Positions 45,772 through 48,876 of a stretch of DNA of 64,000 nt are shown here, piece after piece. The stretch's first letter is position 1. Each line of letters begins with the position of its first letter. Origin of the DNA: Escherichia coli (lineage in GTDB: Bacteria; Pseudomonadota; Gammaproteobacteria; Enterobacterales; Enterobacteriaceae). The stretch lies in assembly GCF_001677475.2 (NCBI RefSeq), contig NZ_CP015229.1. One strand, written 5' to 3'. A program made the translations under genes and the position numbers. A model generated the notes under the pieces. That model had not been told where the DNA came from and searched no databases. It saw nothing but the letters and a program-made list of their open reading frames with translations.

Positions 45772-46623
<852 letters not shown>

Positions 46624-46699
46624 GGTATGTCAGGTCTGCCACAGGGCAGACCAACGTTTGGCGCTGCCCTTTTTAATCAAACAATAAAAGGACAGCGCA

Positions 46700-47470
46700 A
46701 TGACAACACAATCCCACCATGACCACGTAGAAAAGCAGTTTAGCTCTCAAGCCAGCGAATATCTGACCAGTACCGTACATGCATCCGGACGAGATTTACA
46801 GCGCCTGGCGGTGCGTCTGGCTGATTATCCTGATGCAAGTGTACTTGATATGGGCTGCGGAGCAGGGCATGCCAGCTTTGTTGCTGCGCAAAACGTGAGC
46901 GCGGTGGTGGCGTATGACTTATCTGCCCAAATGCTGGATGTCGTGGCACAAGCTGCCGAAGCCCGGCAACTGAAAAATATCACCACCCGCCAGGGTTATG
47001 CCGAAAGTCTGCCATTTGCCGATAACGCATTTGATATTGTTATCAGCCGTTATTCTGCCCATCACTGGCATGATGTTGGTGCAGCACTGCGTGAAGTGAA
47101 CCGGATATTGAAACCTGGCGGTAGGCTGATTGTGATGGACGTAATGTCTCCGGGCCACCCAGTGCGCGACATCTGGTTACAGACGGTAGAAGCATTACGC
47201 GATACCTCTCACGTACGAAACTACGCCAGCGGTGAGTGGTTGACGTTAATCAATGAAGCCAATCTGGTAGTTGATAATTTAATTACAGATAAGTTACCGC
47301 TGGAATTTTCTTCATGGGTCGTGAGAATGCGTACGCCAGAAGCGTTAGTAGACGCTATTCGCATTTACCAACAGAGCGCATCGACAGAGGTGAGAACGTA
47401 TTTTTCCTTGCAGAATGATGGCTCTTTCATCAGTGATATCATCATGGTAGAAGCACATAAAGCGGCATAA
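46700..47470 (+). CDS. yafE: Class I SAM-dependent methyltransferase YafE
   Basis: 256-aa ORF with SAM motif LDMGCGAGH and VISRYSAHHW; start codon choice uncertain. Confidence 0.8.
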   Translation: MTTQSHHDHVEKQFSSQASEYLTSTVHASGRDLQRLAVRLADYPDASVLDMGCGAGHASFVAAQNVSAVVAYDLSAQMLDVVAQAAEARQLKNITTRQGYAESLPFADNAFDIVISRYSAHHWHDVGAALREVNRILKPGGRLIVMDVMSPGHPVRDIWLQTVEALRDTSHVRNYASGEWLTLINEANLVVDNLITDKLPLEFSSWVVRMRTPEALVDAIRIYQQSASTEVRTYFSLQNDGSFISDIIMVEAHKAA

Positions 47471-47472
47471 AT

Positions 47473-47506
47473 AAAAAAGGCACCGGGGGAATCGGTGCCT
47501 TTTTAT
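47473..47506. terminator. Bidirectional terminator between yafE and mltD
   Basis: aaaaaaggcaccg-ggggaat-cggtgcctttttatt. Confidence 0.55.
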
Positions 47507-47517
47507 TATCTGGTTTG

Positions 47518-48876
47518 TCAGGAATCTGGCATGTTGTTGTTTTTCACAAACAACGTCAGCTTATCGCCTGGTTGCAGATTCGCAGTGTCGCTGTTCCAGC
47601 GCATCACATCTTTAATGTTCACGCCGTGGCGTTTAGCAATGCTTGAAAGCGAATCGCCTTTGCGCACACGATACGTAATGCTATCGCTGTTGTTTGCCAA
47701 CCGCTGTGCGCTACTACCTGCGCCAATCGTCAAGCTTTGGCCTGGCTTCAGCTTAGATCCGCGCAGTTTGTTCCACTGCTGCAAATCCTTGGTGCTAACG
47801 CCGAGACGTGAAGCGATACTTGAAAGCGTGTCGCCAGAGCGTACGGTGTAAACACGGCTGTTAAGCGGCGTATTGTCGGCAACCAGCGTCGACTGTACAG
47901 CAGCAATTTCGCCCGAAGCCAGAGATTCACGCAGTTGATCTGCATGCTTCTTTGGCACCATCACGTACTGCGGACCACTTGCGCCCAGCGTGGAGCCTTT
48001 CACGCCAGCGTTGAATGTCTTCAGCTTGCTGACGGAAATCCCCGCCATATCTGCAACCTTCGCCATTTCAACCGGGCTGCTCAGGTGCACACGCGCCAGA
48101 GCACGGCTTTCATCGGTCGTTGGCAGACGTACGCCATAACGCTTGCTGTTTTTGAGAATATCACTCAATGCCAGCATTTTAGGCACGTACTGCTTCGTTT
48201 CCTGCGGCAACGGTAACGACCAGAAGTCCGTGGATTTCCCACGCGCTTTGTTCGTTTTAATTGCCTTCATGACCCGACCTTCGCCGCTGTTATAAGCCGC
48301 TACGGTCAGAAGCCAGTCGCCGTCAAACATCTTGTTCAGACGCTGCATCATGTTCAGCGCGGCAGTTGTTGAAGCAACAACATCGCGACGCGCGTCATAA
48401 TTGCGGGTCTGTTTCAAACCATAATTGCGCCCCGTGCTCGGAATGATCTGCCAGATGCCTGCGGCATTGGCGCCAGACGTTGCGTGAGGATCAAAAGCGC
48501 TCTCCACTATGGGTAGTAGTACCAGTTCCATAGGCATGTTACGTTTTTTAACTTGCCCGGCTATCCAGTACATATACGGCTCTGCCCGTAAAGTTACATC
48601 GTGGAGATAGCTCTTATTGCGTAAATATTTCTGTTTCTGTTCGCGAATCCGGTCATTTTCCGGAATTCCCATCTTTAGCTCGTCGCCAATGAAAGCCCAC
48701 AAGTCACCATCTGGCGCGATAGACGTCCCATCGTCCATCCATCGTGCCTGACTTGTAAACTTTGCTGCTTCCCCTTGACCAGCTGCAGAAAGGCTCTGTG
48801 CGTGCTGTTGAACGTTGCCGGTACTCTGGCAACCCACGAGCAGGACAGAGGCGAGTAATATCGCTTTTGCCTTCAT
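47518..48876 (-). CDS. mltD: Membrane-bound lytic murein transglycosylase D (lipoprotein with C-terminal LysM repeats)
   Basis: 452-aa ORF MKAKAILLASVLLVGCQSTGN (lipobox LVGC); two LysM-like repeats (YTVRSGDTLSSIASRLGV, YRVRKGDSLSSIAKRHGV). Confidence 0.9.
   Translation of the reverse strand: MKAKAILLASVLLVGCQSTGNVQQHAQSLSAAGQGEAAKFTSQARWMDDGTSIAPDGDLWAFIGDELKMGIPENDRIREQKQKYLRNKSYLHDVTLRAEPYMYWIAGQVKKRNMPMELVLLPIVESAFDPHATSGANAAGIWQIIPSTGRNYGLKQTRNYDARRDVVASTTAALNMMQRLNKMFDGDWLLTVAAYNSGEGRVMKAIKTNKARGKSTDFWSLPLPQETKQYVPKMLALSDILKNSKRYGVRLPTTDESRALARVHLSSPVEMAKVADMAGISVSKLKTFNAGVKGSTLGASGPQYVMVPKKHADQLRESLASGEIAAVQSTLVADNTPLNSRVYTVRSGDTLSSIASRLGVSTKDLQQWNKLRGSKLKPGQSLTIGAGSSAQRLANNSDSITYRVRKGDSLSSIAKRHGVNIKDVMRWNSDTANLQPGDKLTLFVKNNNMPDS

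Follow-up and report, generated by a model that had tools for sequence, protein, structure and literature searches.

Both knockout screens and assays in vitro have included the YafE protein of Escherichia coli K-12 (YAFE_ECOLI) among candidate methyltransferases (PMC3936739, PMC12096079). In the latter work YafE was cloned from MG1655 genomic DNA, and the protein was soluble and could be purified to about 90% homogeneity. No methyltransferase activity of the purified protein was detected, and titration with SAM gave no change in intrinsic fluorescence, "suggesting no SAM binding", whereas for YafS a Kd for SAM of 0.68 uM was reported (PMC12096079). Deletion of yafE was accompanied by fewer called m6A peaks, in one replicate, and the authors did not mention that motif I is missing from the K-12 gene (PMC12096079). 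Elsewhere the Keio yafE knockout or the yafE of Salmonella was screened as a candidate methyltransferase, with no phenotype. Our literature search found no paper noting that K-12 yafE is truncated, and none treating yafE together with yafD.

Two proteins of solved structure, Bacillus subtilis YcgJ (1xxl, 2glu) and Bacillus halodurans BH2331 (1vl5), are the best structural matches to YafE among those listed in our search. In both, a C-terminal subdomain accompanies a class I Rossmann core, as it does in the YafE model described below. They are just 30–33% identical to YafE and are themselves uncharacterised, and thus give no function; in the data examined, neither has an adjoining yafD-like gene. 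YafE homologues are also called 'UbiE' by some sources, and the UbiE/MenG family (TIGR01934, PF01209) and YafE do have in common a Methyltransf_11-type core, motif I and the post-I acidic residue. In this work we compare these systems with the yafE locus found in a 64,000-nucleotide stretch of an E. coli genome, which we refer to as the window.

Fold and family of YafE in the window

In the window yafE encodes a protein of 256 amino acids with the N-terminus MTTQSHHDHVEKQF, and lies between yafD on one side and the oppositely oriented mltD on the other (Table 1). The exact protein is present in public databases (for example ANO87360.1), and RefSeq annotates a 771-nt yafE coding sequence with the same start in the intact strains LHM10-1 and HS.

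Table 1. Sequence features of the yafD–yafE–mltD region, in order along the window
Feature	Position	Strand	Basis
yafD, endonuclease/exonuclease/phosphatase family, upstream partner of yafE	45823..46623	+	ORF, annotation
Intergenic ATG, annotated K-12 yafE start, 3 nt past yafD stop	46627..46629	+	MG1655 coordinates, translation
Spacer hairpin 1, GGTCTGCC-ACAG-GGCAGACC, starting 10 nt past yafD stop	46633..46652	+	fold z-score
Left imperfect direct repeat copy at breakpoint, CAGGGCAGACCAACGTTTGGCGCTGC	46642..46667	+	repeat search and GCTGC microhomology
Spacer hairpin 2, GCGCTGCCCTTTT ... AAAAGGACAGCGC, 3' arm holding yafE Shine-Dalgarno	46661..46698	+	inverted repeat, MFE
220-bp segment absent from K-12/B-lineage allele	46668-46887	.	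window compared with K-12-like and MG1655 sequence
Shine-Dalgarno AAGGA, 7 nt before yafE ATG	46688..46692	+	conserved in orthologues
yafE start codon ATG	46700..46702	+	ATG at homologous position in 80/80 orthologous loci
yafE CDS, class I SAM-dependent methyltransferase by sequence and model, YcgJ/BH2331-like group	46700..47470	+	256 codons plus stop; ORF list, Pfam
yafE codons 2-48, N-terminal helical cap ahead of beta1	46703..46843	+	AF2 model, family alignment, pN/pS
Motif I LDMGCGAGH, residues 49-57: beta1 end and glycine-rich SAM-binding loop	46844..46870	+	sequence read directly
Internal Met51 codon, not start site	46850..46852	+	variable in orthologues, no Shine-Dalgarno, within beta1
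Right imperfect direct repeat copy, in codons 55-63, CAGGGCATGCCAGCTTTGTTGCTGC	46863..46887	+	repeat search and GCTGC microhomology
GC-rich hairpin with flanking A- and T-runs, between convergent yafE and mltD; probably bidirectional terminator	47474..47504	.	terminator scan
mltD	47518..48876	-	

The Pfam profile Methyltransf_11 (PF08241) matches residues 49–145 of YafE with an E-value of 1.2e-27 and 96.8 bits against a cut-off of 21.2, and the match covers profile positions 1–95 of 95. A match at this level indicates that yafE is not a chance open reading frame. None of the NCBIfam equivalogs reached its cut-off against the window protein. An AF2 model of the 256-residue protein, built with the family alignment, has a pLDDT of 96.2 and a pTM of 0.93. 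From the N-terminus, the model consists of helices at residues 6–15, 18–22, 25–28 and 31–40, strand beta1 at 47–51, a glycine loop and a helix at 57–63. The class I beta/alpha sandwich with its seven-stranded sheet is apparent in this structure, which is a predicted and not a solved one. At the end of beta1 the predicted structure places the acidic D50 followed by GxGxG, which is the arrangement of motif I, and D73 closes the strand formed by residues 68–73. In the class I fold the acidic residue at the end of beta2, known as the post-I motif, binds the ribose of SAM. Both D50 and D73 are invariant in an 82-sequence family alignment in which L49, G54, G56 and H57 of motif I are at least 90% conserved.

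A Foldseek search with the YafE model returned 1646 PDB chains at E <= 0.001, and each of the 50 that were listed is either a class I methyltransferase or a protein from structural genomics that has the class I fold. On the strength of its sequence and its modelled structure, the window YafE is a class I SAM-dependent methyltransferase. Among the matches listed the closest are YcgJ and BH2331, with target-normalised TM-scores of 0.91 and 0.93 and rmsd values of 1.6–2.0 A. The likeness is also visible in sequence, with phmmer E-values of 8.3e-39 for YcgJ (YafE residues 45–242) and 3.6e-31 for BH2331 (residues 20–250). Since the BH2331 alignment begins at query residue 20, the N-terminal helices are common to BH2331 and YafE. 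YafE thus resembles the YcgJ/BH2331 group over its full length in both sequence and fold, from the N-terminal helices through to the C-terminal subdomain.

The likeness to UbiE/MenG is limited to the core, at about residues 40–155. We rejected an assignment of YafE as a UbiE/MenG quinone C-methyltransferase, as the scores fall well short of the cut-offs (78.4 against 158.35 for TIGR01934, 68.9 against 216 for NF001244); the UbiE equivalogs score YafE at 52–69 with cut-offs of 216–378. An assignment as the malonyl-ACP O-methyltransferase BioC was rejected on the same grounds (61.8 against 342 for NF007610, 61.3 against 184.95 for TIGR02072).

The deletion allele of K-12 and B strains

We consider it very probable (about 0.93) that the window carries the intact ancestral yafE, read from the ATG at 46700, and that the 207-residue form of K-12 and B strains is a 220-bp deletion allele of it. 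By direct comparison, the K-12 sequence matches the window without a difference up to position 46667 and then picks up 220 bp further on. The pentanucleotide GCTGC is common to both breakpoints (46663–46667 and 46883–46887), and owing to this microhomology the deletion can equally be placed at 46663–46882. The deletion takes the end of the spacer including its T-run, the Shine-Dalgarno sequence, the ATG, about 63 codons and motif I. GCTGC lies at the end of a longer imperfect direct repeat, of which there is one copy at each breakpoint, and in a megablast search the alignment of the K-12 junction with intact genes runs over the right-hand copy at 90–92% identity. We infer that slippage or illegitimate recombination at these direct repeats gave rise to the deletion.

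In MG1655, yafE (b0210, 231926..232549) is annotated as a gene for 207 amino acids that starts 3 nt past the yafD stop codon, and its product has the N-terminus MSGLPQGRPTFGAAQNVSAVV. Residues 1–14 of this product are derived from spacer DNA, and from Gln15 onward it corresponds to YafE from Gln64. In the window the same ATG, at 46627, is out of frame with yafE and opens a reading frame of only 31 codons. As 220 leaves a remainder of 1 when divided by 3, the deletion shifts this ATG into the yafE frame and joins it to codon 64, and gene finders then called the open frame that was left. Many other genera have GCG, ACG or GAG at the position of ATG 46627, or lack the codon, so the K-12 fusion is fortuitous. 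The same variation, together with the short out-of-frame reading frame in the window, led us to reject a conserved leader peptide starting from this codon.

An initial annotation of this DNA had referred to shorter annotated forms of about 207 amino acids that begin near an internal Met and cut off sequence needed ahead of motif I. A form of this length does exist, as MG1655 b0210, with the difference that it starts at the intergenic ATG and not near the internal Met. It does lack the sequence ahead of motif I as supposed, but motif I itself is lost as well.

The K-12 and window genes occupy a common locus between yafD and mltD, and their products fall into one 90%-identity cluster. They are ~96% identical over residues 64–256, where 7 amino acid differences are found in 193 codons. 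What distinguishes the K-12 gene from that of the window is the loss of the native Shine-Dalgarno sequence, the ATG and residues 1–63, in place of which there is a new N-terminus of 14 residues. Over the retained 193 codons there are 7 nonsynonymous and 5 synonymous codon differences. Three of the replacements (Q77H, S242F and E251D) are K-12-specific and occur at positions that are nearly invariant across genera, which suggests, from a small sample, that K-12 yafE is under relaxed constraint.

Of 5,426 complete E. coli genomes, 5,424 were matched in a megablast search with the yafE locus. In 3,802 of the 5,424 the match extended over 80% or more of the query, and most of the others matched at 79% in two pieces. 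With a 100-nt probe across the K-12 junction, 18 of 60 evenly spaced matches aligned in one piece at 97–100% identity; the figure of 3017 genomes with at least 80% of this probe covered mixes both alleles, as the two halves are joined in intact genomes. These results suggest that the deletion allele, with a single shared junction, is present in roughly 30% of complete E. coli genomes, or about 1,600, a number that is an estimate from coverage classes and not an exact tally. The B strain REL606 also has the 624-nt allele, annotated as a normal CDS. The gene is intact in E. coli HS, the match to 55989 is unbroken, and O157:H7 isolates keep the 220-bp segment. In recent annotations NCBI's PGAP pipeline marks the deletion allele as a pseudogene, and for a K-12 O16:H48 genome its entry reads 'incomplete; partial in the middle of a contig; missing N-terminus'. 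The long-form result is thus an ordinary one that is essentially known.

The K-12 protein is without the N-terminal cap, beta1, the GxGxG loop and helix alphaA, and is therefore most likely an inactive remnant. This conclusion is backed by one published negative SAM-binding assay, the outcome of which is explained by the deletion (PMC12096079). Structure prediction does not bear on this point. The initial annotation had proposed a comparison of predicted structures for the long and short forms, and although the long form is confidently modelled, the comparison does not discriminate: AF2 gives the 207-residue K-12 form a pLDDT of 96.0 as compared with 96.2, and simply omits the missing elements from the model. 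The new N-terminus is in part placed at the position of alphaA, as the sequence G..G...F.AA is by chance encoded in the DNA repeat. Values this similar can neither tell the two forms apart nor reveal misfolding.

An alternative is that truncated YafE keeps a SAM-independent role, such as the binding of a ligand or partner by the C-terminal two-thirds of the protein. The solubility and purification of the K-12 protein to about 90% homogeneity are in line with this, as is the lower number of m6A peaks seen in one replicate upon yafE deletion (PMC12096079). In addition, AF2 models the remaining fold confidently, and about 30% of complete E. coli genomes still have the frame open. We nonetheless regard such a role as unlikely, given that neither SAM binding nor activity was detected (PMC12096079), that beta1, the G-loop, alphaA and the N-terminal cap are gone, that relaxed constraint is suggested by the three substitutions specific to this lineage at sites that hardly vary otherwise, and that PGAP calls the gene a pseudogene. 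A SAM-independent role of the K-12 protein does not conflict with the start site that we assign in the window.

Translation start and ancestral state of yafE

We collected yafE from 80 loci representing about 25 genera of Enterobacteriaceae, which with the window gives 81 sequences. Predicted YafE lengths across the 80 loci range only from 255 to 258 amino acids. Each of the 81 sequences has AAGGA, AAGGG or TAGGA just 5' of the ATG, and within this element A70, G71 and G72 (alignment A3) are invariant. An in-frame TAA at 46685–46687, four codons 5' of the ATG, closes the frame, so that 46700 is the most upstream start that yafE can have.

The region between this start and motif I has the properties of coding sequence. 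Variability is 0.097, 0.073 and 0.384 at the first, second and third codon positions, respectively, which is a coding signature, and the median pN/pS in pairwise comparison with the window is 0.217 for codons 2–50 and 0.222 for codons 51–256. Judged by these ratios, purifying selection acts on codons 2–50 as it does on the remaining codons. An alignment of orthologues had been suggested initially as a check on the N-terminus, and it shows the first 50 residues to be as conserved as the remainder, with a mean commonest-residue fraction of 0.87 for residues 1–50, 0.86 for residues 51–150 and 0.85 for residues 151–256. More distant homologues carry the same region. A HMMER search of 1.84 billion representatives yielded 262 YafE homologues at E <= 1e-30, and those of full length (about 250–265 aa, 31–59% identity) align from query residue 3–13 and from their own residue 2–13. 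In the 82-sequence family alignment Tyr21 is invariant, and Phe14, Ala18, Ser24, Leu33 and Leu49 are at least 90% conserved. Taken together, five lines of evidence (the conserved ATG and Shine-Dalgarno sequence, the conserved N-terminus, the distant homologues, the RefSeq coding sequences and the structure model) strongly support the longer form as the real protein. We propose that translation would start at ATG 46700, directed by AAGGA at 46688–46692, and would yield a 256-residue class I SAM-dependent methyltransferase in which residues 1–46 form a helical cap, residues 47–51 strand beta1 and residues 52–56 the glycine-rich SAM loop.

It could be argued that the start is ambiguous on this DNA, with ribosomes initiating also or instead at Met51 or GTG38 to give products of about 206–219 residues. 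The two codons are indeed in frame (ATG51 at 46850 and GTG38 at 46811) and are the only further starts 5' of motif I, and the Shine-Dalgarno sequence of the 46700 start is predicted to be paired in a stable hairpin, so that its efficient use may need an additional event. However, reading the window sequence directly we see no Shine-Dalgarno-like sequence before either codon, and the selection on codons 2–50 is the same as on the remainder of the gene. Position 51 is Met in 48 of the 81 sequences, Leu in 31 and Val in 2, and the 33 orthologues with Leu or Val make it no conserved initiator. Met51 is also the last residue of beta1, the first strand of the Rossmann core in the AF2 model, so initiation there would strip away beta1 and the entire N-terminal cap, and with them the invariant Y21 and D50. 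Finally, a Met51 start would yield 206 and not 207 amino acids, and the 207-residue form is wholly accounted for by the deletion allele. We therefore consider internal initiation very improbable.

The start at 46700 is thus well supported and, as far as can be read from the DNA, there is no genuine ambiguity. The start-codon ambiguity raised by the initial annotation has to be withdrawn, as the 207-residue form reflects a different allele produced by the 220-bp deletion and not an alternative start. The open frame from 46700 that it described is real, as the ORF list and the Pfam match show. Its view that the longer form is structurally more plausible is borne out by the presence of beta1 (residues 47–51) and the cap in a model with a pLDDT of 96. 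It had also located the motif LDMGCGAGH 50 codons into the frame; the motif is present, but it starts after 48 codons, and it is Met51 that follows 50. The annotation of the window needs no correction, and the 256-residue reading agrees with current RefSeq for intact strains.

As to direction, the long form is found at each of the 80 outgroup loci, which come from Citrobacter, Salmonella, Klebsiella, Enterobacter and other genera as well as from Escherichia clades, and yafD, the spacer and the ATG are collinear there, which makes the K-12 state a derived deletion. The reverse reading takes the K-12 arrangement as the original one and the 220 bp of the window as an insertion that brought in the N-terminal 63 codons later. 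It has as its sole support the curated MG1655 record that lists the 207-aa CDS as a normal gene, and is refuted by this outgroup comparison. The equivalents of the N-terminal region and motif I in distant homologues and solved structures speak against it as well, as do breakpoints that lie in direct repeats as a deletion predicts.

The yafD–yafE spacer and the study of YafE

In all 80 loci yafD is directly 5' of yafE on the same strand, with a spacer of 75–114 nt, and yafC also belongs to the conserved neighbourhood. A promoter scan found no sigma-70-like site between yafD and yafE, a result that fits their co-transcription but is not proof of it. The 76-nt spacer of the window folds into two hairpins with a free energy of -35.9 kcal/mol and a z-score of -5.67 against shuffled controls. 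Hairpin 1, whose pattern is unique within the window, retains its 8 pairs in full across 58 sequences, and one of these pairs varies between U-A, U-G and C-G. For hairpin 2, a register-anchored count gives a mean of 9.8 of 13 pairs as compared with 4.3–5.3 in shifted registers; compensatory pair types occur at pairs 2, 3 and 12, and pair 4 is broken in half of the sequences. The yafE Shine-Dalgarno sequence is paired in the minimum free energy fold of 66 of 78 distinct orthologous leaders. RNAalifold keeps 13 pairs in the spacer (8 + 5), and among the orthologous spacers it finds no pair in which both sides have changed. A search of window positions 46300–47000 with the Rfam 15 covariance models gave no match at E <= 1. 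Beyond the Enterobacteriaceae, the search for the yafD–yafE pair and its spacer returned homologues of 54–59% identity in unrelated contexts, which add no power to detect covariation. Collectively, the evidence for a conserved structure in the spacer, drawn from sequence comparison, is moderate, not strong.

Hairpins 1 and 2 are alike in their 5' arms and also in their 3' arms, and this resemblance makes an alternative pairing between the 3' arm of hairpin 1 and the 5' arm of hairpin 2 possible. Such a pairing could in principle make the synthesis of YafE depend on translation of yafD. Before any such rearrangement, hairpin 2 would mask the Shine-Dalgarno sequence of yafE. When a ribosome terminates on yafD, whose stop codon is 10 nt before hairpin 1, it would melt hairpin 1. 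The 3' arm set free in this way (GGGCAG) could base-pair with CTGCCC in the 5' arm of hairpin 2 and thereby expose the Shine-Dalgarno sequence. That positions 46633–46698 constitute an unrecognised translational-control element of this type is a tentative proposal, which we think may well turn out to be wrong.

The K-12 deletion takes most of hairpin 2, including the arm with the Shine-Dalgarno sequence, and so the intact element, if real, could not be studied in the standard laboratory strain. The consequences for work on the protein are more direct. The yafE genes of K-12 and REL606 lack motif I, yet the MG1655 record and UniProt still list an ordinary 207-aa gene. Negative results obtained with K-12 YafE, including the reported absence of SAM binding, are consequently uninformative on the function of intact YafE. 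The K-12 protein is no valid proxy for the enzyme, and functional work should use the 256-aa allele, such as that of the window or of HS.

Annotation and strain distribution of the yafE deletion allele

The same deletion allele of yafE is annotated inconsistently, being presented as a coding sequence in REL606 and MG1655 and as a pseudogene in a newer K-12 record (see table). An intact 771-nt yafE is present in E. coli HS while K-12 and REL606 carry the deletion. All three are phylogroup A strains, so that the deletion would be a marker for just a subset of this group.

Features at the yafE locus. L numbers denote genome loci, with coordinates local to each.
Feature	Position	Remarks
yafE deletion allele, REL606 (NC_012967.1)	L084 12851-13474	normal 207-aa CDS, WP_000016015.1
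yafE deletion allele, MG1655 (NC_000913.3)	L003 1927-2550	normal 207-aa CDS, NP_414746.1
yafE deletion allele, K-12 O16:H48 genome	L001 1595-2191	newer PGAP: pseudogene, 'missing N-terminus'
Intact yafE, E. coli HS (NC_009800.1)	L085 6379-7149	
Divergent yafE, SCPM-O-B-8794	L004 1501-2268	
Spacer hairpins, yafD-yafE	window 46633-46698	predicted fold
GC-rich hairpin AAAAAGGCACCG...CGGTGCCTTTTT	window 47474-47504	between convergent yafE and mltD; A- and T-runs on flanks
yafE homologue P0125 between leuD and leuB, metagenomic contig	L089 824-3421	

Hairpins flanking yafE

Folding of the yafD-yafE spacer (z -5.67) predicts a pair of stable hairpins, and the yafE Shine-Dalgarno sequence is base-paired within hairpin 2. 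This two-hairpin arrangement is conserved across the Enterobacteriaceae, and a search of Rfam returned no match for the spacer hairpins. The 3' arm of hairpin 1 could alternatively pair with the 5' arm of hairpin 2 (GGGCAG/CTGCCC), with a T-run following, and this pairing suggests translational coupling or attenuation at the spacer. K-12 keeps hairpin 1 and has lost most of hairpin 2, including the Shine-Dalgarno arm. On the downstream side, the GC-rich hairpin looks like a bidirectional intrinsic terminator.

Divergent and possibly disrupted yafE copies

Complete E. coli genomes share 95-99% DNA identity at the yafE locus. The copy in a genome labelled 'Escherichia coli strain SCPM-O-B-8794' has only 94% protein identity to the YafE of the window, and its synonymous divergence (pS) of 0.35-0.50 lies far beyond this range, suggesting that the copy belongs to a divergent clade or has been recombined. 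At least one of the complete E. coli genomes, NZ_CM137004.1 (megablast hit H30), matches only 49% of the locus, in two places, which suggests that yafE was disrupted there in another, independent event, such as the entry of an insertion sequence. P0125, a homologue with 56% identity to YafE, is located between leuD and leuB; this position may hint at an isopropylmalate- or aconitate-like small carboxylic acid as the substrate of this methyltransferase group.

The N-terminus of K-12 YafE

K-12 YafE begins with 14 spacer-derived residues, MSGLPQGRPTFGAA, encoded at MG1655 L003 1927-1968 (window 46627-46667 plus 46888). These residues partly mimic residues 50-63 of intact YafE, DMGCGAGHASFVAA, because the deletion arose between similar DNA repeats. 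MAFFT and AF2 both place the spacer-derived residues at the motif I/alphaA position, a mimicry that could mislead automated annotation.
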